Shown here: piece by piece, positions 6,473 through 55,101 of the stretch
Numbering within the stretch: the stretch's first letter is position 1
Layout: each line of letters begins with the position of its first letter
Source of the DNA: Candidatus Liptonbacteria bacterium
GTDB taxonomy: Bacteria; Patescibacteriota; Minisyncoccia; UBA6257; 2-01-FULL-56-20
Assembly (NCBI GenBank): GCA_023244895.1
Contig: JAHFLL010000001.1
Location: 83,630-147,629, forward strand
Direction of reading: 5' to 3'
Length of the DNA: 64,000 nucleotides
Translations under genes and position numbers: made by a program
The notes under the pieces: generated by a model
The model's input: only the letters and a program-made list of their open reading frames with translations
Told to the model about the DNA's origin: nothing
Databases searched by the model: none

Positions 6473-7915
6473 ATGAAATACCAACCCACAATCGGATTAG
6501 AAATCCACTGCATCTTGCGAACACAGACCAAGATGTTTTGCGACTGCCCCAACGAGCCGGAGGAAAAGGAGCCCAACCGCAACACCTGCCCAGTTTGTCT
6601 GGGCCATCCCGGTACCTTGCCTACTATAAATCGCAAAGCGGTAGAGTCCGTTATCCGGGTGGGTCTGGCGCTTCAGGGTAAGATAAATCCGATTTGTAAG
6701 TTTGACCGTAAGAATTATTTTTATCCCGATTTGCCGAAGGGTTATCAAATTTCCCAATACGATCAGCCGCTAGTTCTGGGCGGCGAGCTGAATGGTATCC
6801 GCTTGCGCAGAATACATTTAGAAGAAGATGCGGCCAGGCTGCTGCATGAGATCTCCGGCCAAACCAAAAAGGGCGAGGCGAGTTTTGTGGATTTTAACCG
6901 CGCGAGCGTGCCCTTGATGGAGCTTGTGACTGAACCGGATTTAAGGAGCGCGGAAGAGACGGTAGAATTCGCGCGTGAGCTCCAAAGGATTTTGCGATAT
7001 TTGAAAGTATCGGACGCGGACATGGAGAAGGGGCATTTGCGCATTGAGGCAAATGTTAGTTTGAATATGGGTCCTAAGGTTGAGCTTAAAAATATTAACT
7101 CCTTTAAGGCGGTCGGTTCCGCGATTGCGTATGAACTGAAGAGGCAGGAGGAAGTTCTGGAGGGTGGAGGAACGGTCGCGCATGAGACACGCGGTTGGGA
7201 CGAAGTGAACCAGAAGAGCGTAAGTCAGCGTAGCAAGGAAGAAGCACAAGACTACCGTTATTTCCCGGAGCCGGATTTACCGCCATTTGAGACGGAGATT
7301 TTCAGCCCGGAAGAACTTCGTGGAGCCTTGCCGGAGTTGCCAGCCATGAAGCGTACCCGTTTCGCAAAAGAGTTCGGTTTGAGTCCCGACCAGGTCGCGC
7401 TCTTGGTGGACGACTTGGAACTATCGGAATATTTTGAAGAATGTTTAAGCGAGCTTGCCACGCGGGATGAATCAGCCTCGTCTACGGTTGAAAAGAGCAG
7501 TACCGTTTTACTCTTTAATTATTTAACTAGCGACCTGGCTGGCCTCTTGGCGGAAGGGGGCATAACTATCCGCAAATCCAAAGTCAAACCGGAACACCTG
7601 GCTCACTTAGTGGATTTAATCGTGGATGGAAAAATAATGAGCCGCCAAGCTAAAGATATTTTGAAGAAAGTTTTTGAAACCGGCACTGACCCGGAAGACG
7701 TTATGAAAGACGAGGGACTGGAGACCGTTTCGGATAACTCCGAGCTGGAAAAAGCGATTAAAGAAGTTATATATGAAAACCCGAAAGCGGTGGAAGATTT
7801 GCGCGCGGGCAAGGAGGCAAGCATGCAGTTCTTGATAGGAAAGTGTATGGGTAAGCTTCGCGGGCGGGGCAATCCGGCGACCATAAAAGAAGTTATAAGC
7901 AAAATTATTAAATAA
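6473..7915 (+). CDS. gatB: Asp/Glu-tRNA amidotransferase subunit B
   Basis: N-terminal GLEIHCIL...KMFCDCPN and a GatB/YqeY C-terminal domain. Confidence 0.9.
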   Translation: MKYQPTIGLEIHCILRTQTKMFCDCPNEPEEKEPNRNTCPVCLGHPGTLPTINRKAVESVIRVGLALQGKINPICKFDRKNYFYPDLPKGYQISQYDQPLVLGGELNGIRLRRIHLEEDAARLLHEISGQTKKGEASFVDFNRASVPLMELVTEPDLRSAEETVEFARELQRILRYLKVSDADMEKGHLRIEANVSLNMGPKVELKNINSFKAVGSAIAYELKRQEEVLEGGGTVAHETRGWDEVNQKSVSQRSKEEAQDYRYFPEPDLPPFETEIFSPEELRGALPELPAMKRTRFAKEFGLSPDQVALLVDDLELSEYFEECLSELATRDESASSTVEKSSTVLLFNYLTSDLAGLLAEGGITIRKSKVKPEHLAHLVDLIVDGKIMSRQAKDILKKVFETGTDPEDVMKDEGLETVSDNSELEKAIKEVIYENPKAVEDLRAGKEASMQFLIGKCMGKLRGRGNPATIKEVISKIIK

Positions 7916-9159
7916 TGAGCCCAGAAACTCCACCCCTCCCAGACGATCCGCCCAAGGACGCCTCTATCCCCAGGCGAACCTCTAGGGAAAATCCGAAACA
8001 AGAAGAAATCGGGTTGGAACATCTAGCGGTGGGTCCAGGTCAAGAAGATTCTGCCAGGCAGTTGGAAGTTATTTCCGGTTTTCGTTTTCGGGATGAGCGA
8101 GACAGGCAACAATTCACGTCTTTTATGGAGTCGCTGGCTCAGGCCCTAGAGACGTATTTATCGCACAACAATGCGGAGCCGTTGGCCGGGATAGACGACA
8201 CTATTTTGCGCGCAGTTTTGCTGGCAGAACCAAACGAACCGGCTCAAAGGCAGAAAATTTCGATTGAAGAAGCATTCGTAAGAATCCAAAAAAATATTAC
8301 CGAATATCTAATAAGTCATCCCCGTCAGATTCAAATCAGTTCTGGAGTTATCTCAGACCAATTAATTCTGCGGATTAAGGGCATGGAATCTATGGTCAAT
8401 TTTTTACATTTGCGCTCCGCCGAGCCTCTACCCGAAGATTGTCGCCGTACTTTTTACACCCAAACCAGGCTGGATGCCAGATTCAGCGTTGACGTAATAG
8501 AAGTGATTGAGCAAAACCAAGGTGGTCAATTAGAGATTCCGGAACTGAATCTTATTCAGGTCAAATCATCCGAACCCACAGATAGGGGCGTGAGCGATAT
8601 CCAGAAGGACCATGACATAGTTTGGCGAGAACTTTGGGGAGATGTGGAAAACGCTAATCAGGCAGTCGCGGAGGCATTCAGGTTAAGTCCAGACCAACTG
8701 GGCAAAAGGGTGGAGGGGCTACTTTGGATCTGCGCCGAGCTTCAGGCCGGGGGCAGTCCCAAAAATTTCCTTGACTCATTGACCGCTGAAATAATAAATT
8801 CGGCCGAACAGTATGGTGTAAACCCAGACTATCTAAGGCAGGCTAGCCCAGCCTTGCGCGCCAAAAGAATCACTCCCATATTGAGGATGTTTTTGAAATC
8901 CTTGGGGGAGAGATTTGATAAAGCATTTGTAGTATTAGATCAGATGTCCAAGAAACCAGAGGGCGTTCCCCCGCAGCAACCGTTTTTTGTGCGCAATCCG
9001 GCAGTAGCAAGAATTAAGGATGTGAATTCTTTGGTTGTTGTTGGAGAGCGGAGCGGTTCGTATCACATAGCGGCGAAGGAAGTCATTACTTCTGGCCAGT
9101 CCGGTAAGGCGTTAGTTTTGCGGTCGCGTCGGATTGACCCGGGAAATAAAAAGAGGTAA
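7915..9159 (+). CDS. hypothetical soluble protein (414 aa), translationally coupled to gatB
   Basis: start overlaps the gatB stop (TAATG); backbone-like GC; no TM segment and no motif I can assign. Confidence 0.5.
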   Translation: MSPETPPLPDDPPKDASIPRRTSRENPKQEEIGLEHLAVGPGQEDSARQLEVISGFRFRDERDRQQFTSFMESLAQALETYLSHNNAEPLAGIDDTILRAVLLAEPNEPAQRQKISIEEAFVRIQKNITEYLISHPRQIQISSGVISDQLILRIKGMESMVNFLHLRSAEPLPEDCRRTFYTQTRLDARFSVDVIEVIEQNQGGQLEIPELNLIQVKSSEPTDRGVSDIQKDHDIVWRELWGDVENANQAVAEAFRLSPDQLGKRVEGLLWICAELQAGGSPKNFLDSLTAEIINSAEQYGVNPDYLRQASPALRAKRITPILRMFLKSLGERFDKAFVVLDQMSKKPEGVPPQQPFFVRNPAVARIKDVNSLVVVGERSGSYHIAAKEVITSGQSGKALVLRSRRIDPGNKKR

Positions 9160-9171
9160 AAAATAGAAAGC

Positions 9172-9453
9172 ATGAGCAAGGAGCATGCACCCATGGGGAA
9201 CAACCCGATCGACGTCTTGCTGCGTGAGCACGGCCTCGAACCGTTGCCTGGCGCTGGCAGAGAGGGGCTGTACGTGGCTCCGTTTGACGAGCACGCGTGG
9301 GAAGTCGCCACGGCGACATTCAAGAACGCCATCGGTAATGCGTCGGATCAGGCGGCCATCGCCGAGCTGATGGAACAGGCGATTCGGCTGTACGTGGAGC
9401 TCGTCGGACAGAACACGCGAGCGCCCGCCGAGGAGCCAAGACGATGCGCGTAG
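9172..9453 (+). CDS. hypothetical high-GC protein (93 aa)
   Basis: first ORF of a high-GC island; followed by a strong hairpin terminator; start codon uncertain. Confidence 0.35.
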   Translation: MSKEHAPMGNNPIDVLLREHGLEPLPGAGREGLYVAPFDEHAWEVATATFKNAIGNASDQAAIAELMEQAIRLYVELVGQNTRAPAEEPRRCA

Positions 9454-9461
9454 GCGCGTAA

Positions 9462-9503
9462 GTGGCCGCACCCTCCCGGGATGCGGCCACGATATTTAAT
9501 AAT
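9462..9503 (+). terminator. intrinsic terminator GTGGCCGCA(11-nt loop)TGCGGCCAC plus T-rich tail
   Basis: perfect 9-bp GC stem followed by GATATTTAATAAT. Confidence 0.55.
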
Positions 9504-9525
9504 CAATTAGGTTGGTATAGATTTT

Positions 9526-9566
9526 ATGCAAAAAGTTACCCCCGGCGCACAGCGTGGCGCCAGGGG
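9526..9566 (-). terminator. intrinsic terminator for the PhoH-like gene (minus-strand CCCCTGGCGCC...GGCGCCGGGGG then TTTTTG)
   Basis: GC hairpin followed on the minus strand by TAACTTTTTGCAT. Confidence 0.6.
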
Positions 9567-9601
9567 TAGGGGACTTATGGACTCTCTCGTAGCGAGGACG
9601 G

Positions 9602-11062
9602 CTAGAGCAGTTTCGCCGCCAGCTCCGCGATCTTGGAGCGAACGACATCGTGCATCGCTAGGTGAGCGAAACAGGGCTGGCCCTTGAATCGTTCCACGAC
9701 CTGCACTAGCCCGTTTGAGAGCGAGTTGATCTCGCTACGGTCAATCTGGTCGGGGTCGCCCGTGAGGATCACGCGCGAGCCCTCGCCCGCCCGCGTGAGC
9801 ACGAGCTTCATGTCCTCTTGAGTGAGGTTCTGCCCGTCGTCCACAATGATGACGGCTTCGTGGATGGAGCGACCGCGCAGATAGTTAATCGGCGCGATAT
9901 CAAGGGCGTGCGTTTGGAGCAGACTCTCGACAGTCGGATGTGTCGATACCGCTTCTCCTCTGGTCGGTTGATGTTCGCCGACCGAGTTGGTGAAGCGTGT
10001 CGGACCATGCAGTCGGCGCATGATGAAGTCGAGGTTGTCGATGATGGGCCTGGCCCAAGGGGCCATCTTGTCTCCCAGATCTCCCGGGAGAAAGCCCAGT
10101 TCACGGCCCGCCTCGGCGTTGAGGCGGTAGACTTCGATACGCGAAACCTTGTGGCTCCGGAGCATCTTGTAGGCCGACAGGAGCGCAATGAGCGTCTTCC
10201 CCGTGCCGGCGATGCCGCTCAGGCTGGTGATTAGGGTATGATCGTCCATGATCAGGTCGTGCGCACAGAACTGTTCTGCGTTACACGGTCCGAAGCGTTC
10301 TTCCAGCTTGGTGTTGACGCGACGCAAGTAGCCTGGGGTTTCGTGACTCTTGTAGATTCCCCACGCACTCTTGCCCGTGCCGGCGACACAGATCTCACAG
10401 CACTGGTTGGCCATGATCTTACTCACATCTGTGTAGTCGGCCAGGGCACTCACCGGGAGCCGTTGCTCGTGGTGCAGAGTGTTCAGCAACGCTGCCTCGC
10501 CCTCTGGCACCTCAATGCGCAGGCGTCCCGAATAGAATTTCTCGGGAGCCTCCACGGCCCGGTCGCTCCGATAGTCTTCGGCCACGACGCCACGCGCGCG
10601 AGCCTTCATCCGCATCGCGGCATCGCGGGTGACGAGGATGACCCGTTCGTCCGGATGCGCGACCTGGTAGTTGTCAGCCAACATGATAATCGCATCATCG
10701 GCGTAGTCTCGGTTGAATCCGGGCCACGCGCGAGACAGGTCCAGCCTGCCCGCGTCGAATCGCAGCAGTCCTCCGTTCAGAGGGATTCCGTGCTGTAGTT
10801 CGTCGAGAGAGGCCCGCGTCTGAATGTCGTCCAAGAACCTGACCACGTTGCGGGCAGTGTACCCGACACCGTTTGCGGCAGCACGCCGCCGATCAAGTTC
10901 TTGGAGTACGGGGAACGGTATGACAACGACGTTCCCGTTGACCAGGGATTGCACGATTTCGGGCACGGCCACCAGCACGCTGGTGTCCGTAACGTAGGTC
11001 TTCTTCCCTACGTTTCCCGCTTCGCCGCTTAGCATGGATTGCTCCTTCGGGTTTGCCAACAC
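9602..11062 (-). CDS. PIN domain / PhoH-like ATPase fusion (YlaK-like)
   Basis: N-terminal PIN-like region (YVTDTSVLV...VVIPFPVLQELD) and C-terminal PhoH P-loop (LSGIAGTGKTLIAL); strong SD GAAGGAGCAATCC-ATG; GC3-rich codons unlike the backbone. Confidence 0.8.
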   Translation of the reverse strand: MLANPKEQSMLSGEAGNVGKKTYVTDTSVLVAVPEIVQSLVNGNVVVIPFPVLQELDRRRAAANGVGYTARNVVRFLDDIQTRASLDELQHGIPLNGGLLRFDAGRLDLSRAWPGFNRDYADDAIIMLADNYQVAHPDERVILVTRDAAMRMKARARGVVAEDYRSDRAVEAPEKFYSGRLRIEVPEGEAALLNTLHHEQRLPVSALADYTDVSKIMANQCCEICVAGTGKSAWGIYKSHETPGYLRRVNTKLEERFGPCNAEQFCAHDLIMDDHTLITSLSGIAGTGKTLIALLSAYKMLRSHKVSRIEVYRLNAEAGRELGFLPGDLGDKMAPWARPIIDNLDFIMRRLHGPTRFTNSVGEHQPTRGEAVSTHPTVESLLQTHALDIAPINYLRGRSIHEAVIIVDDGQNLTQEDMKLVLTRAGEGSRVILTGDPDQIDRSEINSLSNGLVQVVERFKGQPCFAHLAMHDVVRSKIAELAAKLL

Positions 11063-11142
11063 TTAAGTTGGGAGGTCCGAGTGCTCGCCTAATACTCCTT
11101 TCCGAGGCTGTCATTTGGTTGGAATGTAAAGGCCTCTGCCCC

Positions 11143-11178
11143 GAATTATACCCTTATGTAAGTTCAGAAAACAGCTGC
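11143..11178 (-). promoter_or_regulatory. candidate sigma70 promoter for the PIN-PhoH gene (perfect TATAAT -10)
   Basis: minus-strand ...TTTTCTGAACTTACATAAGGGTATAATTCGGGG about 80 nt upstream of the SD. Confidence 0.4.
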
Positions 11179-11211
11179 CTGTGGATAAGATTTATTGAGG
11201 TTTTATGCGGT

Positions 11212-12189
11212 CTAAAACAATTTTTTCACCTCTTGTAAAGCCCTATTTTTATCCTCTATCCAAACAATATTTTTATCTTTTTTCCACCAAGTCATTTGGC
11301 GTTTGGCGTAGCGCCAAATTTCGGTTTCCAATTTTTGCAACATTTCTTCTTTGGTTATCAGTCCGCGCAGATAGCGAGAGAGGTAGCGATATTCCAAGCC
11401 AAGCTCTTCCATTCTCCGCCAGCTTAATCCATCTTGGTGTAATTTTTTTACCTCTACCAACATGCCTTGGCGCATCCTTTTAATAAGTCGCGCGCGAATT
11501 CTCTCGCGTAGCTTCTCGGGTTTAATCCCAATGCCGAGTTTTAAAATTTTGTTTTGCGAAATTTTATCCTGAGCTTGTCGAAGGATTATGTCTGGGACGG
11601 GCGCGCCGGTTTTGAGGACTATCTCTAAGGCGCGGATGAGGCGACGCGGATTTTTTTGGTCAATATTTTTGGCGCGCGCCGGGTCCAGCTTCTGAAGTTT
11701 TTCGAAAAGTTCCGTGACAGATAATTTTTCCAACTTGGCGCGTAGTTTGGGATCGGGCGGAACGTTTGGCAGGGAGGTGTTATTTATAAGTGCATCAATA
11801 TAGAGTCCGGTACCTCCGCAGATAATCGGCAATTTATTTTTCGCCCAGATTGTTTTGAGCGCTTTGCGTCCGAGCTTCTGGTAGTCGGCTACAGAAAATT
11901 GTTTTTTAGGAGAGGCTACATCAAGCAGATAGTGGGGAATGCCTTTATAGGAGTAGGTAGTAGGTAGAGAGTAGTAGGCAGAGCGATCACGGGGAACTTT
12001 GCCGGTGCCGATATCAAGACCTCGATAAACCTGACGGGAGTCGGCAGAAATAATCTCTGCACCAGATATGCCGTACTTTTTTTGGAATGGTTTACTCTGA
12101 GCGAGCTTGGCGAGTCGAAGGGCCAAATCCGACTTGCCGGAGGCGGTCGGGCCTAAAATAACCAGTATTTTCCTGCTTAAATCACTCAT
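11212..12189 (-). CDS. miaA: tRNA dimethylallyltransferase (true start MSDLSRK at 12189; the longer track ORF is readthrough)
   Basis: P-loop ILGPTASGKS and IISADSRQVYRGLDIGTGK; low-GC backbone codon usage. Confidence 0.85.
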   Translation of the reverse strand: MSDLSRKILVILGPTASGKSDLALRLAKLAQSKPFQKKYGISGAEIISADSRQVYRGLDIGTGKVPRDRSAYYSLPTTYSYKGIPHYLLDVASPKKQFSVADYQKLGRKALKTIWAKNKLPIICGGTGLYIDALINNTSLPNVPPDPKLRAKLEKLSVTELFEKLQKLDPARAKNIDQKNPRRLIRALEIVLKTGAPVPDIILRQAQDKISQNKILKLGIGIKPEKLRERIRARLIKRMRQGMLVEVKKLHQDGLSWRRMEELGLEYRYLSRYLRGLITKEEMLQKLETEIWRYAKRQMTWWKKDKNIVWIEDKNRALQEVKKLF

Positions 12190-12218
12190 TTGACTAATTA
12201 TACAAAATGTGATAAAAT
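12190..12218 (+). promoter_or_regulatory. near-consensus sigma70 promoter TTGACT-17-TGaTAAAAT (extended -10)
   Basis: seen directly; the -35 abuts the miaA start codon on the opposite strand. Confidence 0.5.
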
Positions 12219-12288
12219 ACGCAATAGCGTCGGTGAGCTGGGGCATAGGGCTCCGGCAATAGTCCGAGGCGGTATATCGGAGTGCGTC

Positions 12289-12684
12289 ATGACTGATGCT
12301 ATCGTGTTTGTGATCACGGCGTTCATGGTCGGCGGAGAGGTCTTCATGGCGGCATGGGGGATTTTCTCCTGGACATGCGTTGTGGCGTGGCTCGCTGTGA
12401 TGCTCTATCTCACCTGGGACATCTGGGGCGCCCGGGTCGTAGAGCTCCAGCGGGATCTCGTGGCCGAGTTGGAGGAAGGCACGCCGCCCGACTTCAGCTC
12501 GCAACGAGTACTCCCGCCAAGTAGGTGGGACATCGTCCATTTCGCTGGCGTGGACGAGCAGGGGCAGGCGAAGTTCGACTACCCCCTCCTTTCCGCGTTT
12601 GCCGCCTGGCTCCGCCACCACATTGTGATTGGCGGTGGTCGCTGGCGGTACGGCGACACGTTCCCGCCGGACGGCAGCCGGTAG
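12289..12684 (+). CDS. small membrane protein (about 131 aa, 2 predicted TM segments), high GC
   Basis: GGAG 8 nt upstream of the ATG; hydrophobic N-terminus (VFVITAFMVGG...WLAVMLYLTW); GC3-rich. Confidence 0.4.
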   Translation: MTDAIVFVITAFMVGGEVFMAAWGIFSWTCVVAWLAVMLYLTWDIWGARVVELQRDLVAELEEGTPPDFSSQRVLPPSRWDIVHFAGVDEQGQAKFDYPLLSAFAAWLRHHIVIGGGRWRYGDTFPPDGSR

Positions 12685-12746
12685 CCCCACTGAGACGGGG
12701 CAATAGTGACTGGGGTCCAACGTGGACCCCTTTCGCATTTTTATAT

Positions 12747-12775
12747 TTGACTAAAGTGGAAAGCGGGCATAGTTT
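12747..12775 (+). promoter_or_regulatory. candidate promoter TTGACTAAAGTGG...(-10 weak, TAGTTT)
   Basis: shares the TTGACTAA -35 box with the promoters at 12190 and 13853, and AAAGTGG with the one at 34703. Confidence 0.3.
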
Positions 12776-12798
12776 TTAAATCAGGAAAGGAGACGGCG

Positions 12799-12906
12799 AT
12801 GTTTCAAGCAGGCAACTCCTCGGACCCATGGGTCGTATTCGCGTTTGTGGTAATGGCGATTTTGGCCTGGGTTGTTCGCCGAATTGATCGGCGGAAAGGA
12901 GGATAG
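12799..12906 (+). CDS. 35-aa single-TM peptide (MFQAGNSSDPWVVFAFVVMAILAWVVRRIDRRKGG)
   Basis: AGGAAAGGAGAC SD 5 nt upstream; codons checked by hand. Confidence 0.4.
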   Translation: MFQAGNSSDPWVVFAFVVMAILAWVVRRIDRRKGG

Positions 12907-12907
12907 A

Positions 12908-13099
12908 ATGCAGCCGCCCACAGAGTTCAGGTTGGAAAACGTTCTGGCGGCTACGGGCCTCTTCGTTGCCTGGCTGGTCGGCAATCTCATAGCCGACTGT
13001 CGGGCGAGACGGAGAAGGACGAATGTGCCGAAACGTGGAAGCGGGCACGCTCCGCACGAACACTGCGAACACGAATGCGAGGAAAAGCGTGAAAGCTAG
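12908..13099 (+). CDS. 63-aa membrane peptide with His/Cys/Glu-rich tail (HAPHEHCEHECEE)
   Basis: AGGAGG SD; start lies 1 nt after the previous stop; a TM helix followed by a possible metal-binding tail. Confidence 0.4.
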   Translation: MQPPTEFRLENVLAATGLFVAWLVGNLIADCRARRRRTNVPKRGSGHAPHEHCEHECEEKRES

Positions 13100-13102
13100 G
13101 GG

Positions 13103-13145
13103 GCGAGTCGGAGAGCCGACTCGCCCTTACACATTTAATAATTTG
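13103..13145 (+). terminator. intrinsic terminator GGCGAGTCGG agag CCGACTCGCC plus T-rich tail
   Basis: perfect 10-bp stem 4 nt after the stop. Confidence 0.6.
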
Positions 13146-13170
13146 ACAAAGATTCGGAATAGTATTTGGA
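13144..13170 (+). promoter_or_regulatory. candidate promoter with TTGACA -35 inside the motif ATTTGACAAAGA (also present at 16636)
   Basis: -10 is ambiguous (TAGTAT or TATTTG with a short spacer). Confidence 0.3.
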
Positions 13171-13246
13171 TAGGGATAGCTTACTGCTCCGACGCTTTCG
13201 TGGGCCTTGGGGCAAATCTAGTGGGCGGAAGGGAGGGATCTCCGTG

Positions 13247-13378
13247 ATGTTGGCAGTCGCACTCTCGAGCGTCCCGATGTGGGCATGGCCAGTCATCGCC
13301 ATCGTGGCCGTCGTGGCTGCCGCTGTGGTTGCGCGGTTTTTCAGCGGCAGGAACTCGTCCACGAACCACGTCGCGTGA
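13247..13378 (+). CDS. 43-aa hydrophobic peptide (MLAVALSSVPMWAWPVIAIVAVVAAAVVARFF...)
   Basis: GGGAGGG SD; GTG-ATG start; one TM segment. Confidence 0.4.
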   Translation: MLAVALSSVPMWAWPVIAIVAVVAAAVVARFFSGRNSSTNHVA

Positions 13379-13387
13379 CACAGCAAG

Positions 13388-13440
13388 GGGGGCCGGAGGA
13401 AGCGTGCGTATGCACGCTCGCCAATGGCCCCCCGATCAAT
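13388..13440 (+). terminator. nested GC hairpins (GGGGGGCC...GGCCCCCC enclosing GCGTGC gtat GCACGC)
   Basis: lies downstream of the 43-aa ORF; followed by an AT-rich stretch. Confidence 0.4.
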
Positions 13441-13527
13441 TTCAATAATCGGATTGACGGATAGTCTTTTTTATACTTTCATATAGCGAGCGCACAATCA
13501 TCGCCACCTCGCCTCAAGGAGGTCGGA

Positions 13528-13815
13528 ATGGGTTTGATCTTGGTATATGCGATCGCACTGTATGCGATCATCGCCTTCGTGCACGGAGCACAAGGTGGAA
13601 ATCGGGAAGATGTGAACGAAGAATCCGCACGTCCGCCGCTCTGGTGGATAGCGATCCACACTCTCGGAAGCTGGCTGGCTCTCCAGCCAAAGCTCTTCCC
13701 GGAGCGTTGGTGCGAATTCGTGTGTCGGTTCAAGATGTTGCGCGGGTCTCTGTGTCGGCGAATGACGGAGGTCGTCCGTCGTGGCTGGCACCTGATTGGT
13801 GCGAACATAGAATGA
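13528..13815 (+). CDS. 95-aa membrane protein with Cys-rich C-terminus (WCEFVCRF...SLCRR)
   Basis: AAGGAGG SD 6 nt upstream; two hydrophobic segments. Confidence 0.45.
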   Translation: MGLILVYAIALYAIIAFVHGAQGGNREDVNEESARPPLWWIAIHTLGSWLALQPKLFPERWCEFVCRFKMLRGSLCRRMTEVVRRGWHLIGANIE

Positions 13816-13852
13816 AGGGGCTTCCGGCACGCGTCGGCGGTCCCTTTCTGTT

Positions 13853-13881
13853 TTGACTAATCAGCCATTTTGTTTTTATAT
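13853..13881 (+). promoter_or_regulatory. sigma70-like promoter TTGACT-17-TTATAT
   Basis: TTTTGACTAA -35 context shared with 12190 and 12747. Confidence 0.45.
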
Positions 13882-13896
13882 ATAGTCAGCACGTAT

Positions 13897-13917
13897 CTTC
13901 CGGTGTGCTACGCACCG
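13897..13917 (+). promoter_or_regulatory. 5'-UTR hairpin TCCGGTG tgctacg CACCGGA
   Basis: perfect 7-bp inverted repeat between the promoter and the SD of the 178-aa ORF. Confidence 0.35.
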
Positions 13918-13939
13918 GAGTTGCCGTTTTGGAGGACAC

Positions 13940-14476
13940 ATGACCGGCGAAGTTCTAGTAGCAGTTCTGCTGGGCGTAATCATGGGGGTCGCAATTCTGG
14001 GCTCAATGGACCGTGCCACCTGGCGGCGAGTCTGGGACGAGATCTTCGCCGACGCCTGGTGCGTCCAGGCCACGAAGAACACCTACGAGTCCGTTGTGGG
14101 TGCGATTCTGTGGCTCGGGGTCATGGTGGCGGGTCTCGCTATTCAAGCGGCGGGGTCGGTGCGGGCATGGTGGCGAGAGAAAGTATTTGTGCCACCGCGC
14201 GTTGCCATCAAAACGTTCGCGGACGCGACGGGTCGCGAAGGCGAGAACACTATGGTGTTCATCTCCGAGGTGGGCATCCTGGTCTGGCGGCTGTTGCTTT
14301 GGCTCGCGATAGCAGCTGTCGCGAGCGTTTTCCGCCAGCTCCTCGCTGAGCGGGCAGAGACAAAACGGGTTTTCGCCACATTTGCCGACTCCATAGAGGC
14401 GGACGACCACTTCTGTGCGACGACCCTAACCAATCGGCAGGATGCCGCTTGCGAAGCCGTGAGGTCAGTCAAGTAG
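13940..14476 (+). CDS. 178-aa polytopic membrane protein (about 4 predicted TM segments)
   Basis: GGAGG SD; alternating hydrophobic helices; high GC. Confidence 0.5.
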   Translation: MTGEVLVAVLLGVIMGVAILGSMDRATWRRVWDEIFADAWCVQATKNTYESVVGAILWLGVMVAGLAIQAAGSVRAWWREKVFVPPRVAIKTFADATGREGENTMVFISEVGILVWRLLLWLAIAAVASVFRQLLAERAETKRVFATFADSIEADDHFCATTLTNRQDAACEAVRSVK

Positions 14477-14484
14477 ACCAGTCT

Positions 14485-14520
14485 GGGGCTCCGCGTATGT
14501 CGGAGCCCCTTACGCTTTTC
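14485..14520 (+). terminator. intrinsic terminator GGGGCTCCG cgtatgt CGGAGCCCC plus T-rich tail
   Basis: perfect 9-bp stem ending the high-GC island. Confidence 0.6.
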
Positions 14521-14627
14521 ACTCATCTTTATAGAATCAATAGGGGTATCTCACGAGATGGGACTAAACAGTAACTCCTATTATTTTTAGAACTAAAACA
14601 TAGCGTCATGGTGGGTCCCGCCCGGCC

Positions 14628-16433
14628 TCACAAAGACTTCTCCTTGTATTCTTTCTCTATTTCCTCTGCCAATTTTTCTATTTTCATTTCTCCTACCTGT
14701 CCCTTCTTGTAATGCCTGATGCTTACCGTGTTCGTACCTTCTTCTTTTTCGCCAACAACTAAAACGTAGGGTATCTTTTCCATATCCGCGGTGCGGATTC
14801 TCTTGCCCAGAGTCTCGTTCGCGTCGCGCAATTCCACCCGGATATTTTTTTCGCGCATGGCCTCCGCCACTTTTTCGGCATACGCCGCGAACTTTTCTCC
14901 GACTGGCAGAATTGCGACTTGCACCGGCGCGAGCCAGAGAGGGAATGCGCCCGCGTAGCGCTCTATCAGGAATGCCATGGTGCGCTCAAAGCAGCCGATA
15001 GAGGAGCGGTGAATCACGATAGGCTGTTGTTCTTTGCCCTGCTCGTCGGTATAAACCAATTCAAAACGTTTTGGCATTACGAAGTCATACTGCACTGTAA
15101 AGGCGGTCTCTTCCTGGCCGCTGACCTTCTTCATCTGCACGTCAATCTTAGGACCATAGAACGCCGCCTCACCTTCCGCTTCAAAGAAGGGCGCTTTCAT
15201 TTCTTTGAGCACGCTACGCAAAACACCCTCCGCTTTTTCCCAGGCCTTGTCGTCCTTGTAGTATTTCTTGGAATCCTTGCGGTCGCCGAGCGATAGACGG
15301 TAGCGATAATCAACTCCCTTCTCCAAACCAAATACTTTATTAGCGTAATCTATCAGATCTAAAACCCGTTTTATTTCATCCTTAGCCTTTTCTGCGGGAA
15401 CGACAATATGCGCGTCCGCCAAGCAGAACATTCTTACCCTCATTAAGCCGGTCAGCTCACCGCTTTTTTCGTAGCGGAATTGGCTGGCTATCTCCGCGAT
15501 GCGCATAGGTAATTCGCGGTAACTACGCGGCTTGCTCTTATAAAGCATAAAGTGGTGTGGACAGGTCATGGGACGCAGTATTAATTGGTCGTTGTCCACC
15601 TGCATGACCGGATACATTGTATTTTTATAATAGGGGTAGTGTCCGGACTTCTGATAGAGTTCCACTTTCGCGAGCGGGGGAGTGATAACGTGCTGATAAC
15701 CCCACTTGGTTTCGGTTTCGTACACGAATTTTTCCAGCTCTTTTCTGATGACGGTGCCCTTGGGGGTGAGGAGCGGCAAGCCCTTGCCGACTATGTCGGA
15801 AAAAACAAACAGATCTAAATCCGCGCCCAGTTTGCGATGGTCTCGCTTCCTGGCTTCTTCCAGTCGCGCTACGCATTCCTCCAGCTCTTTCTTGCTGTTA
15901 AATGCCAAGCCGTAGATACGGGTCAGCATTTTTTTCTTTTCGTCGCCTCGCCAGTAAGCGCCGGCAATCTTCTCCAGCTTAAAACCGTGCGGGTCTATCT
16001 CGGCCGGGGGCAGGTCGTGTCCGCCTTTGCACAAATCTATAAATCCTCCGCAAGTGAAAAAAGTTAGAGTTTTTTTCTCGCGCGCGAATTCTTCCGCGAG
16101 CTCAATCTTATATTTATTCCAACCAAACTCTTTTTTGACCTCGCGCAGGGTTACGATTTTTTTAGTCCACTTGGTCCAACGGGGAAGCAGTTCCCGCATT
16201 TTAGCCTCAATCTTGGGTAGGTCCGCATCGGAAATAGTTTTTGACATCTCAAAGTCCTGGTAGAAGCCGTTTTCTACGGCTGGTCCGATCGCGTTCATAG
16301 AGCCGGGGTAGAGCTCGCGCACGGCGGCGGCCAAAAGGTGCGCCAAGGAATGGCGCACGCCTTCCAGTTGCAGTTCGCTGGAACTCTCCCTTGCCGGCTT
16401 GCTTGCTGATTTCTTTACGGATTGTTTTTTCAT
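14628..16433 (-). CDS. thrS: threonyl-tRNA synthetase
   Basis: class II core with an anticodon-binding domain; N-terminal editing/TGS region reduced; TGA stop. Confidence 0.9.
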   Translation of the reverse strand: MKKQSVKKSASKPARESSSELQLEGVRHSLAHLLAAAVRELYPGSMNAIGPAVENGFYQDFEMSKTISDADLPKIEAKMRELLPRWTKWTKKIVTLREVKKEFGWNKYKIELAEEFAREKKTLTFFTCGGFIDLCKGGHDLPPAEIDPHGFKLEKIAGAYWRGDEKKKMLTRIYGLAFNSKKELEECVARLEEARKRDHRKLGADLDLFVFSDIVGKGLPLLTPKGTVIRKELEKFVYETETKWGYQHVITPPLAKVELYQKSGHYPYYKNTMYPVMQVDNDQLILRPMTCPHHFMLYKSKPRSYRELPMRIAEIASQFRYEKSGELTGLMRVRMFCLADAHIVVPAEKAKDEIKRVLDLIDYANKVFGLEKGVDYRYRLSLGDRKDSKKYYKDDKAWEKAEGVLRSVLKEMKAPFFEAEGEAAFYGPKIDVQMKKVSGQEETAFTVQYDFVMPKRFELVYTDEQGKEQQPIVIHRSSIGCFERTMAFLIERYAGAFPLWLAPVQVAILPVGEKFAAYAEKVAEAMREKNIRVELRDANETLGKRIRTADMEKIPYVLVVGEKEEGTNTVSIRHYKKGQVGEMKIEKLAEEIEKEYKEKSL

Positions 16434-16635
16434 ATTTGTAGTTTAGATTGTTTTATTATGCCCTATAAGCGCCCAAACAAAAAGTCCTCCGCAGGAGGCT
16501 TCTCGTGGCATCGATTCACTTCTCCACAAAAAGCCCGCCTAGGGAGGCGTAGTAGTTGCGGTAGTAGTTTTGCGAATTTCGACCGTCATAACCCCAATTT
16601 ACCGCCTCGGGGCTACCTGTCAATCTATTTCTGGG

Positions 16636-16670
16636 GATTTGACAAAGAGCACTTTAATATGTTTATTATA
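16636..16670 (+). promoter_or_regulatory. candidate promoter containing ATTTGACAAAGA (identical 12-mer to 13142-13153)
   Basis: TTGACA -35 followed by an AT-rich -10 region (TATTATAGT). Confidence 0.35.
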
Positions 16671-16689
16671 GTGTCAGGAGGACGCGAGC

Positions 16690-16911
16690 ATGCAACACAA
16701 GTCGTCATGTGAGATTCTGGGCCACCACGCCGATCCCAAGCTCGGAGAGGCTTGGAGGAGGGCGTCAAGCTTGAGCCAAGAGGCGATACTTCTCGCCCAA
16801 GCACAGGACGAAGCTGGACTGGCGGAGAACCTTGAGGCTCAGGACGCAAACCGAGCCGAGGTAAACCGCCTCGAGGCCGAGGGTTGCACCTGTGGCGCAG
16901 CCAACCGCTAG
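16690..16911 (+). CDS. 73-aa hydrophilic high-GC protein
   Basis: AGGAGG SD; followed by a GC hairpin and T-run. Confidence 0.4.
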   Translation: MQHKSSCEILGHHADPKLGEAWRRASSLSQEAILLAQAQDEAGLAENLEAQDANRAEVNRLEAEGCTCGAANR

Positions 16912-16930
16912 GGCGGGAAGCAGGAAAAGG

Positions 16931-16963
16931 GGCGCACGCGTCGTGCGCCTCGAACTTTTATAA
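16931..16963 (+). terminator. intrinsic terminator GGCGCACG cgt CGTGCGCC then TCGAACTTTTATAA
   Basis: perfect 8-bp stem followed by a T-run. Confidence 0.55.
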
Positions 16964-17024
16964 GAGGACTCCGAATCCCCAAAAACGTCTTCACGTGGCG
17001 GGGATAGTGAGTTATGATAGTTCC

Positions 17025-26420: not shown

Positions 26421-26549
26421 AGACAGAAAGGGGCTCTGTGCTAACCCTACTCTGGGCTTGTGTTTTCAATAATTCATTGTATTATTCGGCCAGACTAAAA
26501 GCCTCGCTAGGGGCTTATGGCGTGAGCCATTTCATTGGGGGAGGTCGCC

Positions 26550-26831
26550 GTGGACGCTTTGAGTTATGTCTTGGTCGTCGTACTCGCTGGAGTGGTCATC
26601 TGGCTTGCGAATCGTCTGAGGGTACTGAAGAAGGAAAACGCGCAACTGAGCGCGAGTCTCGCGACGGCGCAGGCTGCTCTGCCGCCCGAAGGAACGGAGC
26701 AGTCTCTGCAGGGCATCACGTTTGACCTGCTGTGGGTTTGCCGAACATGCGGCTGGTTCGGTAGAAACAACGTGCTTTACAAGCACGTTCGGCGCGCGCA
26801 CGGAGTAGCAGGTCCACCCGAAGCTGCGTGA
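26550..26831 (+). CDS. 93-aa high-GC protein: TM anchor, coiled coil, C2H2-like zinc-finger tail (CRTCGWFGRNNVLYKHVRRAH)
   Basis: GGGGGAGG SD 5 nt upstream of a GTG start; the track ORF begins at an upstream TTG. Confidence 0.4.
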   Translation: MDALSYVLVVVLAGVVIWLANRLRVLKKENAQLSASLATAQAALPPEGTEQSLQGITFDLLWVCRTCGWFGRNNVLYKHVRRAHGVAGPPEAA

Positions 26832-28780: not shown

Positions 28781-29125
28781 CTAGGACATGATGGCGTGAA
28801 GCAGGGCGAGGCAGGGCCCGCCCACGCTTCCGAGGAAGAAGCCGATCGCGATGACTATCGCGTAGACCTCCAGCGCGGAAGTGCGTGGCTTGCGCCGCTT
28901 GAGCTTCCCGGCCAGATTGGCGAGGAGGCAGAGCAATGGCATCACCAAGATCCAGGTCAATGCGCGCCCCGTGGCCTGGTCTTGCGGACTGGCGCTTGGC
29001 CAGCCTGAGGACATGAGCCACCAGCCGCCCCAGATCGCCGCCAGCAGGGCGAGGATCGTCGTGAGGACGACGGCCCACTCCCATTTGCCGCAATCGATTC
29101 CGTTCGCCGCCGTGACGCTTGTCAT
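28781..29125 (-). CDS. 114-aa high-GC membrane protein (Trp-rich, about 3 predicted TM segments)
   Basis: GGAGGAG SD 4 nt upstream of the ATG; upstream TTGCCA-16-TATTTT promoter. Confidence 0.5.
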   Translation of the reverse strand: MTSVTAANGIDCGKWEWAVVLTTILALLAAIWGGWWLMSSGWPSASPQDQATGRALTWILVMPLLCLLANLAGKLKRRKPRTSALEVYAIVIAIGFFLGSVGGPCLALLHAIMS

Positions 29126-54285: not shown

Positions 54286-55101
54286 ATGCATCCAGGAGAA
54301 CACGGCGTGGAGAACAAAGACAGCAAACGCAGGATGACCCAGGAAGAGGCAGAACTTTTCGCGCGGGACGCGCGATACACGACTCCGGAATCGTTCCGTT
54401 ACAGCTGTTGCGTGGATGGACGGGAAGAAGGCGCAGATGCTTCGCGGGCAGTGCCTGGCGCAGACGCGGGCTACTTCATGTCTGCTCTTGCCGCTCTCCG
54501 GGAATCCGGAGTAGAGGTCACCCCTGAGGTGCGTCGCGCGGTTTTCGGTGCAGTGATTGACTCGGTCGGCGGCCCAAAGAACATCCGTTTCCACACCGAC
54601 CTTCACGCCTTGGAAAAGGCGAAGGAAAAGGGAGTTGTTGCGGGAGTGGCTGCTGGCTGTGGTCATCTCAATTTGGCTCGGCAGAACCCCGGAGTTTACG
54701 GCGTCACCGCGGAAGATATGTCCGCGATCGACGAGGAGCTCCTAAGGCTGCTCGGCGAGGACGCTGATCAGAAGACCCTCCCCGGCAATCACGGCGAGGA
54801 AGCAGTGATGGTGGTGGACGATGTTTCTGTCGGGTTACGCCACCAGGCCGCCGGCAGTCAGGCCTTCGTGTACCACAAGGGTTCGAGCGATGCCTTTTTA
54901 GACCAGCTGGCGGGAGCGGTCTTGGCGAAGCTACCGAACCATCAGCCCGGTCTCACCGAAGAAGCTCTGCGCGTTAAACTGGGAGCATCTTTCGATAGGC
55001 AGCTTACCGCCACGGTGAATAGCCTGGCGCCCGGCCTGCCTCAGTACCGGGTGAGCGGGGAAGAGGTTTCCTACTTGGGCGACGTTCCCAAGAAAGAGTA
55101 G
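54286..55101 (+). CDS. high-GC hypothetical soluble protein (271 aa; start may be the GTG at about 54304 after an AGGAGA SD)
   Basis: about 60% GC; Cys motifs CCVDGRE and AAGCGH; no confident family. Confidence 0.45.
   Translation: MHPGEHGVENKDSKRRMTQEEAELFARDARYTTPESFRYSCCVDGREEGADASRAVPGADAGYFMSALAALRESGVEVTPEVRRAVFGAVIDSVGGPKNIRFHTDLHALEKAKEKGVVAGVAAGCGHLNLARQNPGVYGVTAEDMSAIDEELLRLLGEDADQKTLPGNHGEEAVMVVDDVSVGLRHQAAGSQAFVYHKGSSDAFLDQLAGAVLAKLPNHQPGLTEEALRVKLGASFDRQLTATVNSLAPGLPQYRVSGEEVSYLGDVPKKE

Follow-up and report, generated by a model that had tools for sequence, protein, structure and literature searches.

Clusters of uncharacterised, narrowly distributed and fast-evolving genes enriched in small membrane proteins have been described as ORFan or 'dark matter' islands (Makarova et al. 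2014, PMC4158269), and small, fast-evolving proteins of the Patescibacteria (candidate phyla radiation, CPR) have been noted to escape family clustering (PMC6744442). The genomes of these organisms are tiny, their cells are attached to others and their lineage-specific genes mostly lack annotation. Here we describe an array of small membrane-protein genes from an uncultured groundwater member of the group, a Candidatus Liptonbacteria bacterium, located in a stretch of 64,000 nt (the window; contig JAHFLL010000001.1 of assembly GCA_023244895.1, positions 83,630 to 147,629 of the forward strand). The array, called the island in the following, occupies window positions 12190–14520 between miaA (11215–12189, minus strand; Pfam IPPT, E 4e-65) and thrS (14631–16433, minus strand). 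It is previously unannotated and clade-restricted, and literature searches returned no description of it. Its layout resembles type I toxin arrays, bacteriocin–immunity mosaics and cassette arrays, and fails the testable defining features of each of them.

The island contains six open reading frames (ORFs) in five plus-strand units, with products of 131, 35 plus 63, 43, 95 and 178 amino acids (aa), designated P1 to P6; L-numbers denote the fetched comparison loci. All six ORFs were present at the places given by the initial annotation, which a model had made from the sequence, and each had the Shine–Dalgarno site claimed for it (GGAG, GGAGG or GGGAGGG, 4–9 nt upstream). An AT-rich spacer bearing TTGAC lies in front of each unit (at 12190, 12747, 13143, 13454 and 13853) and a stable hairpin lies behind it. 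Sequence comparison makes it very probable that this is a real coding array with a conserved scaffold. The full account that we favour, to which we assign a probability of roughly 45%, describes the island as five independent transcription units, fixed in the chromosome and restricted to one clade, that encode six unrelated small inner-membrane proteins.

An identical P6 protein was found on five contigs from different assemblies, and other samples assembled in ENA and Logan matched the 5.3 kb around the island with 99.98–100% identity. A chimeric join, which had been raised as a possible refutation, was rejected since the same sequence assembles independently. The best match of ThrS among the GTDB species genomes (79%) came from a Candidatus Liptonbacteria metagenome-assembled genome, and all remaining matches were Patescibacteria. 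The array is found in the same slot order between miaA and thrS in L083–85 and L143, and the wider gene order of L143 is that of the window (tmk, gatB, PIN-PhoH, miaA, array, thrS, small ORF, serS). Partial arrays occur on short or truncated contigs: the fragment L144 abuts thrS, the fragment L145 lacks both flanking genes, and L003, the 79% Liptonbacteria contig, carries four units past thrS before the contig ends. At least four other lineages thus carry the array, and their ThrS identity is 78–93%. The order thrS–miaA is itself common in Patescibacteria: of the 141 fetched loci in which ThrS or MiaA was matched, 36 have thrS followed by miaA in the same orientation, with the two genes nearly abutting in L005. 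The adjacency of miaA and thrS without the island, which the initial annotation had proposed to look for, thus holds in more distant Patescibacteria, as seen from the synteny of the fetched loci. There the gap is empty or contains miaB or a single small tail-anchored ORF, which indicates that the array is an elaboration of the thrS–miaA spacer in a narrow clade. Such an ORF of 44–53 aa, with a C-terminal transmembrane anchor, lies downstream of thrS on the opposite strand in the distant loci L004 (6793–7026), L027 (11846–11992) and L042 (2261–2422), the L027 and L042 versions being alike; it could represent a precursor state of the array.

Protein searches agreed with this narrow distribution. 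A word-indexed search of 5.8 billion proteins returned one P6 homologue (61%), and two more (35–37%) came from 1.84 billion representatives searched in full with HMMER. These correspond to P0002 (58–61%) and to P0004 and P0005 (35–37%), and L003 encodes a C-terminal-only version of 73 aa. P3 had only three homologues (P0006–P0008), and the protein search found none for P1 except a fragment of itself. Homologues were confined to about five related lineages, with two to three per family in the two collections, and a metagenome scan with the ThrS C-terminus yielded mostly distant relatives and no new array. The protein and profile searches assigned no family to any product. All six ORFs therefore combine a narrow phyletic spread with the lack of a functional assignment, as is characteristic of ORFan islands, where this applies to at least 4 of 5 neighbouring genes.

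The coding nature of the ORFs is indicated by frame-specific constraint. In gap-free stretches of P6, P3, the P1 slot and P5, the annotated frame contained no stops and had a ratio of nonsynonymous to synonymous differences per site (pN/pS) of 0.31–0.53, compared with 0.8–1.5 in the out-of-phase frames; the in-frame values were 0.31 for P1 (L084–L143 pair), 0.32–0.39 for P3 and 0.44, again with no stops, for P6. The differences in P6 at codon positions 1, 2 and 3 numbered 45, 44 and 76 (chi-square about 12 with 2 degrees of freedom, by hand arithmetic). Indels in the alignable parts of the ORFs have lengths divisible by three (P3, 6 nt; P6, 36 and 6 nt), and the start codons, Shine–Dalgarno sites and hydrophobic architecture are preserved in every lineage. 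The ratio of nonsynonymous to synonymous substitution rates (dN/dS, omega) by the Nei–Gojobori method was 0.22–0.33 for P3 and 0.31 for P6 (window–L084), and 0.4–0.6 where the alignment was still credible, compared with 0.01–0.04 for thrS and 0.11–0.13 for miaA. A non-coding substitution pattern, with dN/dS about 1 and frameshifts, was thus not observed; the values lie at 0.2–0.5 and the indels stay in frame. Purifying selection, as read from these alignments, acts on the ORFs and is much weaker than on the housekeeping genes. A reading in which the ORFs are incidental and the functional products are non-coding RNAs made from the conserved promoter, leader and terminator pieces would account for the higher conservation of regulatory and leader DNA than of ORF bodies, and GC-rich DNA does yield many long ORFs on both strands. 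It is extremely unlikely in view of the frame-specific purifying selection, the in-frame indels, the absence of stops in the annotated frame only and the conservation of starts, Shine–Dalgarno sites and hydrophobic architecture. Moreover, none of the leaders matched an Rfam family, and the Rfam search over 9000–17000 gave only a sub-threshold match to a small RNA.

The overlapping ORFs in other frames were considered in the initial annotation to be by-products of GC-rich coding DNA, and the frame test as well as two public gene calls bear this out. In L001 and L002, miaA is stretched to 508 aa antisense through P1 (window 11212–12738, minus strand) and a 74-aa ORF at 13023–13247 (plus strand) is called instead of P3. 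The extended miaA was rejected for lack of conservation, since the miaA call of L143 has 317 aa and the slot-1 ORF of L084 is a call of its own beside miaA. The 74-aa ORF was rejected as it has no counterpart in L143 and spans terminator 2 and promoter 3. Both calls are artefacts of stop-poor GC-rich DNA, and P1–P3 are consequently absent from protein databases.

The DNA around the ORFs is much more conserved than the ORFs themselves. Promoters, 5' leaders and terminators are 85–100% identical between lineages. In a three-way alignment of the DNA, the promoter and early leader of unit 1 were 100% identical over about 60 nt, near-identity was seen in terminators 2, 3 and 4, in the leaders of units 3 and 5 and in the unit-5 promoter, and the ORF bodies were far less similar or unalignable; the unit-3 promoter/leader block is 85–100% identical even where the ORF behind it cannot be aligned. 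In the same genome pairs in which ThrS is 93% identical (dN 0.04), the island proteins are 30–71% identical (dN 0.17–0.85), i.e. they evolve 4–20 times faster than ThrS. The P4 slot is the extreme case, with four alleles without detectable similarity (43 aa in the window and L084, 53 aa in L143, 55 aa in L145 and 40 aa in L003). All of them are of one build, with a short N-terminus, a single helix, Arg residues and a polar Gly/Ser-rich tail. Similarly, the P5 slot of L084 is occupied by a 118-aa ORF without detectable similarity to P5, and orthologues of P5 are found in L145 (63%), L143 (49%) and L003 (33%).

A comparison of four lineages in 40-nt sliding windows showed that similarity changes abruptly along the island, with stretches of at least 95% identity and unalignable stretches alternating in one and the same genome pair. 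L143 and L145 are 97–100% identical across the N-terminal half of P5 and 22–30% identical in the P4 slot; for the pair L084 and L145, identity is 97–100% in leader 3 and only about 45% from the start codon on; the window and L084 are 95–97% identical in P4 and 22–37% identical across most of the P5 slot. P4 of the window is 93% identical to that of L084, with a synonymous substitution rate (dS) of 0.10, compared with 2.76 for thrS in the same pair. Near-identical blocks beside dissimilar ones require recent exchange between lineages, and the comparison of the sequences makes a recombination mosaic probable; only the low-dS blocks firmly demand recombination. Neither the window nor any fetched locus yielded a donor copy of the alternative slot ORFs, and a search for direct and inverted repeats revealed only short repeats at chance level and none flanking the island.

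The composition of the island was estimated at about 65% GC in the initial annotation; we measured 0.58 over 12219–14532 and 0.53–0.64 per ORF. The GC content at third codon positions (GC3) is 0.64–0.81 in P1 and P3–P6 and 0.54 in P2, whereas 41 large window ORFs have a median GC3 of 0.56 (range 0.47–0.63, except for PIN-PhoH with 0.75 and one orphan with 0.66). The contrast is also found in L084, L143, L003 and L144, which shows that it is a maintained property and not a sign of un-ameliorated foreign DNA; recent horizontal transfer as the source of the high GC was rejected, the excess being equal in all lineages. The GC3 excess and the mosaic would both be compatible with a hot spot of recombination that is subject to GC-biased gene conversion. 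The elevated GC3 of five of the six ORFs and a weak match of P4 to the PHROG Rz-like spanin (E 0.024) could point to a decayed mobile element or prophage remnant, for instance a lysis or superinfection-exclusion cassette from a GC-richer donor. We regard such an origin as very unlikely: the GC3 excess occurs in every lineage despite near-saturated thrS synonymous sites, the AT-rich TTGAC promoter type is also found at a standalone gene of the same genome (at 16639), and the gene calls within 10 kb on either side of the island included no integrase or recombinase, transporter, regulator, endolysin, tRNA, mobile or phage gene. No flanking repeats are present, and no relatives were found in IMG/VR (P6 and P3 profiles), among INPHARED phages (P6, tblastn) or among PLSDB plasmids (island, blastn). 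The island does not look like a holin or lysis cassette either, with only the weak P4 spanin match and no adjacent endolysin.

According to the account that we favour, each unit would be a constant 'expression slot' composed of an AT-rich TTGAC promoter, a leader, a strong Shine–Dalgarno site and a GC-rich terminator hairpin, and would be transcribed separately from its own TTGAC promoter and end at its own hairpin. Purifying selection would hold the scaffold, and the ORF would be only moderately constrained, by its hydrophobic helix and short motifs. The ORFs would change by substitution and by homologous recombination among co-existing lineages, with the conserved regulatory DNA as flanks, and P2 and P3 would be produced together through translational coupling. 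The array would then be a lineage-specific bank of inner-membrane micro-proteins under diversifying pressure. Of the roles considered, the likeliest would be that of separately expressed 'interface' or protective micro-proteins of the envelope, of the exclusion or immunity type, which from inside the membrane would counter a fast-changing partner outside, such as a phage, competitor or host factor. Slots that stay constant while their alleles diverge and are exchanged are what one sees in loci confronted with a changing external partner, and favour the protective reading. Such a protective or interface function is nevertheless doubtful on balance and only slightly ahead of a housekeeping role; toxins or secreted peptides are less likely still.

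A further, unlikely possibility is that the locus is a device for diversification by recombination, in which the identity of the scaffold provides homology arms for swapping micro-protein alleles. If this is true, the array would be an integron-like cassette bank needing no integrase, by which an ultra-small episymbiont keeps varying the envelope proteins that face phage or host, and the persistent GC3 excess would have been left behind by GC-biased gene conversion at a hot spot of recombination.

The products could instead be lineage-specific housekeeping micro-proteins, each of which would serve a conserved membrane machine (for example a transporter, a pilus, an ATPase or the competence system) as a small subunit, assembly factor or regulator; their fast change would be tolerated since only hydrophobicity and short motifs matter. 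This would be consistent with the stable slot order and number across 78–93% ThrS identity in a core neighbourhood without mobile genes, with purifying selection in all families (omega 0.2–0.5) and with the conserved short motifs LEEG.PP in P1, PPLW(W/L) in P5 and MQPPxEFxLENVL plus the His/Cys tail in P3. On the other hand, a promoter and terminator for each gene argue against stoichiometric subunits, four dissimilar alleles fill the P4 slot at ThrS identities of at least 90%, the P5 slot of L084 is replaced, and the families are missing from all other Patescibacteria with the same core machines. A housekeeping role is therefore rather unlikely in our opinion.

Several points weigh against the favoured account or parts of it. 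The antisense frame that shares third positions with the ORFs also had a low pN/pS, but contained stops in P6; the low value is an expected artefact and leaves the strand call to rest on stops, Shine–Dalgarno sites and the orientation of the terminators. The promoter scan found 6 sites in the region when 4.4 were expected, and the single island site was that of unit 1. Hence the promoters proposed in the initial annotation hold for unit 1, the only one of the five spacers accepted by the consensus scan as a sigma-70-type promoter, and the other four, including that of unit 5, were not recognised. Similarly, five stable hairpins were found where terminators had been proposed (−21 to −37 kcal/mol after P1, P3, P4, P5 and P6; z-scores against shuffled sequences −3.2 to −6.8), and none of the five passed a strict hairpin-plus-U-tract rule because the U-tracts are interrupted. 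The promoter and terminator roles therefore rest mainly on conservation between lineages. The synonymous sites of thrS are near saturation between the genomes (proportion of synonymous differences 0.56–0.78), and the unalignable ORFs taken alone could therefore reflect weak constraint. The single-pass proteins would expose only about 10 residues outside the cell. The slot order is stable without clear presence/absence polymorphism of slots, a state that differs from that of typical banks of immunity or defence genes and suits housekeeping; there was no defence support from PADLOC, PHROG or Pfam, and no mobile-element or phage genes lie nearby. The stable order and the missing defence or phage context weigh most heavily against the protective reading. 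Finally, the existence and coding status of the array are predicted from sequence comparison.

The unit-1 promoter (12190–12218, plus strand as are all elements of the island) reads TTGACT-17-TAAAAT with an upstream TG, had 10/12 matches in the scan and is 100% identical in the window, L084 and L143. A perfect minus-strand TATAAT (12202 to 12197) lies 7 nt before the miaA start codon (ATG, 12189), together with a weak −35 element TTGCGT (12224 to 12219), and miaA is seemingly leaderless. The miaA promoter overlaps the unit-1 promoter face-to-face (12187–12224), which may be why about 60 nt are invariant in three lineages. The unit-1 leader (12225–12288) contains a stem-loop at about 12229–12272, in which three pairs are preserved via two-sided changes in the consensus fold of four lineages, and a GGAG Shine–Dalgarno site (12279–12282). 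P1 (12289–12684, 131 aa) has two N-terminal transmembrane segments, the segments in all six proteins being taken from hydropathy, and the motif LEEG(T/V)PP. Its orthologues in L084, L143 and L003 have 94–96 aa, and its C-terminal extension is specific to the window. The terminator-1 hairpin (12706–12736; −27.1 kcal/mol, z −4.1) has a T-rich tail. In L084 (1140–1190) and L143 (6645–6695), an extra stem-loop (TTATCCGCCC...GGGCGGATAA) lies between terminator 1 and promoter 2, in a stretch of about 90 nt that is missing from the window.

The promoter-like site of unit 2 (12747–12775) reads TTGACT-17-TAGTTT, and TTGA(C/T)G-17-TAGTTT is found at the same place in L084, L143 and L145; the window differs from L084 and L143 in this promoter and in the P2 N-terminus. 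P2 (12799–12906, 35 aa) has one transmembrane segment and an RRxxRRKGG tail, and its orthologues are 49–56% identical, with a TTG start in L084 and L143. P3 (12908–13099, 63 aa) also has one segment and ends with the tail HAPHEHCEHECEE. It begins 1 nt past the P2 stop and its Shine–Dalgarno site lies within the last P2 codons, an arrangement from which we infer that P3 is probably translationally coupled to P2. The P3 N-terminus is conserved as MQPPxEFxLENVL (the second x being K or R), and H47, H50, E51, C53 and H55 of the tail are invariant; the tail is predicted to be cytoplasmic and may bind metal. The 1-nt gap and the numbers of transmembrane segments reported earlier for P1 (two) and for P2, P3 and P4 (one each) were confirmed. 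The idea of a whole bank of peptides with Cys/His tails was not, since a conserved His/Cys motif is found only in P3 and the cysteines of P5 are partly conserved. The terminator-2 hairpin (13099–13128; −26 kcal/mol, z −6.8) is near-identical in four lineages and folds with a stem of 13 bp, instead of the 10 bp given before, and a 4-nt loop. In L143 (7125–7180), a perfect palindrome of about 50 nt (CTATCTATTTGTCTAATATCTCACGATCGTGAGATATTAGACAAATAGAT) follows between terminator 2 and promoter 3; it has no counterpart in the window, L084 or L145 and could be a hairpin element that is small and mobile.

The promoter/leader block of unit 3 (13138–13243) contains TTGACA (13143–13148), an uncertain −10 element and a GGGAGGG Shine–Dalgarno site (13231–13237). 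No covariation was detected in this leader despite its high conservation, and a weak, non-covarying stem touches part of the Shine–Dalgarno site, which is unpaired in the consensus folds of units 1 and 5. In P4 (13247–13378, 43 aa, or 44 aa from GTG 13244), the single transmembrane helix is followed by Arg and then by a Ser/Asn-rich tail. The nested terminator-3 hairpin (13387–13433; −37 kcal/mol, z −5.1) is kept in L084 and L143, and the L145 hairpin differs. The promoter block of unit 4 (13452–13487), with TTGACG (13454–13459) followed by GATAGTCTTTTTTATACTTTCATATAGC, has 34 nt identical in the window, L084, L143 and L145. P5 (13528–13815, 95 aa), annotated as a two-segment protein, has one strong segment and a second that is only weak; it contains a PPLWW motif, PPLW(W/L) among orthologues, and a basic tail with three Cys residues. 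The terminator-4 hairpin (13814–13847; −21.4 kcal/mol, z −3.2), followed by TTTCTGTTTT, is kept in five lineages.

The promoter-like site of unit 5 (13853–13881), TTGACT-17-TTATAT, was found by reading, as was that of unit 2, and is 87–97% identical across lineages. The leader hairpin (13898–13920; −16.5 kcal/mol), which had been given 7 bp and has about 10 bp in the fold, is retained in five lineages with one compensatory pair. The leaders may thus form 5' stabilising or regulatory stem-loops. P6 (13940–14476, 178 aa) has three hydrophobic segments, not the four transmembrane segments of the initial annotation, and a long C-terminal helix. An AlphaFold2 model from a 4-sequence alignment was all helical and too poor for a fold search (predicted local distance difference test 57, predicted template modelling score 0.25). 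The terminator-5 hairpin (14485–14509; −21.7 kcal/mol, z −3.6) is kept in L084. In L143, an additional 41-aa hydrophobic ORF (8436–8561) lies behind a shortened P6 of 141 aa, within unit 5 and before the terminator, which shows that the content of a slot can also change via truncation plus a new small ORF. The P1, P5 and P6 families are mutually unrelated (hhalign profile–profile probabilities below 1%), and paralogy among them was rejected. Arg clusters follow the helices of the single-pass products, which by the positive-inside rule would be inserted with the N-terminus out and the C-terminus in. A class III (type IV pilin) signal peptide, with a short basic leader and the motif G|F/M-T-L-x-E, was not seen on reading the N-termini (e.g. 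MTGEVLVAV, MQPPTEF).

Gene calls within 10 kb on either side of the island gave NusG, L11, Tmk, NUDIX, GatB, PIN-PhoH, MiaA, ThrS, SerS, Alr and PMT_2. The PIN-PhoH ATPase gene (9602–11062, minus strand) is a compositional outlier (GC 0.61, GC3 0.75) and is 69% identical in nucleotides to its L143 orthologue, compared with 83–86% for neighbouring housekeeping genes. A 414-aa orphan and a GC-rich 86-aa orphan (9193–9453, with its own hairpin at about 9462–9490) without Pfam matches occupy 7915–9453; both are missing from L143, where gatB directly adjoins PIN-PhoH. Between thrS and serS, a standalone unit of the island type (16639–16950) consists of a TTGACA spacer, a Shine–Dalgarno site, a GC-rich 73-aa ORF (16690–16911) for a soluble product and a hairpin. 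The L143 counterpart of 79 aa is only 37% identical. Further GC-rich orphans amid housekeeping genes encode a 98-aa single-pass protein (26535–26831, plus strand), a 114-aa multi-pass protein (28781–29125, minus strand) and a soluble 271-aa protein (54286–55101, plus strand); none of the three matched a Pfam family above the threshold. Orphan genes rich in GC thus seem to occur throughout the genome of this organism.

The locus is a comparatively validated case of six micro-protein genes that gene callers partly missed or mis-called, and a concrete example of frozen regulatory DNA beside genes whose membrane-protein products diverge and recombine. Should these proteins work at the interface with phage or host, they would provide a handle on envelope variation in these organisms. 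At the least, they are test cases for the annotation of small proteins in genomes of heterogeneous GC content and for the idea of GC-rich recombination hot spots.

Profile searches of Pfam, PHROGs, PADLOC, NCBIfam and PDB with the products and family alignments gave nothing above noise; besides the P4 spanin match, P3 matched KdpF below the threshold (E 0.14), and PADLOC gave no match at E ≤ 1 for the six products and slot variants. The toxin/immunity, bacteriocin and holin ideas of the initial annotation gained no positive support from leaders, transporter, endolysin, regulator, family matches or antisense promoter. Type I toxin–antitoxin arrays (hok/sok, ldr/rdl, ibs/sib, aapA/isoA) nevertheless share with the island tandem monocistronic units, short single-pass hydrophobic peptides, conserved 5' leaders, strong terminators and a setting amid housekeeping genes. 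P2, P3 and P4 might by analogy be membrane-depolarising toxins arrayed like ldr, ibs and aapA, with structured leaders or antisense RNAs restraining their translation: they have 35–63 aa, one transmembrane segment and a charged tail, the leaders are partly structured, and leaders are more conserved in nucleotides than ORFs. This is quite improbable. At the level of the sequence, the consensus scan detected no minus-strand promoter-like site in 12190–14530, all conserved non-coding blocks of the three-way alignment are accounted for by plus-strand elements, and no Rfam antitoxin or toxin-mRNA family was matched. The Shine–Dalgarno sites are strong and not sequestered in units 1 and 5. Only P2 and P4 are of toxin size (up to about 60 aa with one helix), with P3 borderline at 63 aa, and P1, P5 and P6 do not fit; half of the products have 95–178 aa, with two or three hydrophobic segments each, and the six belong to unrelated families and are not paralogous copies.

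The pneumococcal blp region, like comparable class II bacteriocin loci, may be similar to the island as a recombining, allele-shuffled mosaic of small hydrophobic peptides and multi-pass (here two- to three-segment) membrane proteins with repeated, conserved promoters, and the analogy might suggest a locus for bacteriocin-like peptides and their immunity proteins. In contrast to blp, no double-glycine or Sec leader was present in the six sequences, no C39-peptidase ABC transporter, histidine kinase, response regulator or other quorum-sensing regulator was found within 10 kb, and there was no similarity to bacteriocin or immunity families. The Arg clusters would put the tails in the cytoplasm and give the peptides an integral rather than secreted look, which makes a bacteriocin locus highly improbable. 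Integron cassette arrays and the recombinase-associated orphan immunity gene clusters (rAID) of Bacteroidales have in common with the island variable small ORFs of atypical composition, conserved intergenic DNA and exchange between lineages. Here, there is no integrase or recombinase, attC-type sites are lacking and each ORF has a promoter; the slots are positionally orthologous and exchange apparently proceeds by ordinary homologous recombination. The only GTTRRRY of the island (12715) lies inside the loop of hairpin 1 and none lies at cassette boundaries, and the hairpins are perfect GC stems. With neither an integrase nor attC cores, the integron reading was rejected.

The single-pass products resemble KdpF, AcrZ, MgrB and MgtS, which have 30–60 aa, one segment, the N-out/C-in orientation and little constraint beyond the helix; these are single genes tied to a partner operon, unlike the six unrelated arrayed genes without partners. 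The ORFan islands (PMC4158269) were defined for archaea and often involve mobile elements, whereas the array lies in a bacterial core neighbourhood without mobilome genes, with a fixed slot order and its own conserved promoter and terminator for each gene. Common to both are clustered, uncharacterised, narrow and fast-evolving genes, mostly for membrane proteins of about 40–180 aa. The locus thus fits the general notion of ORFan islands as well as the remark on small, fast-evolving CPR proteins (PMC6744442).

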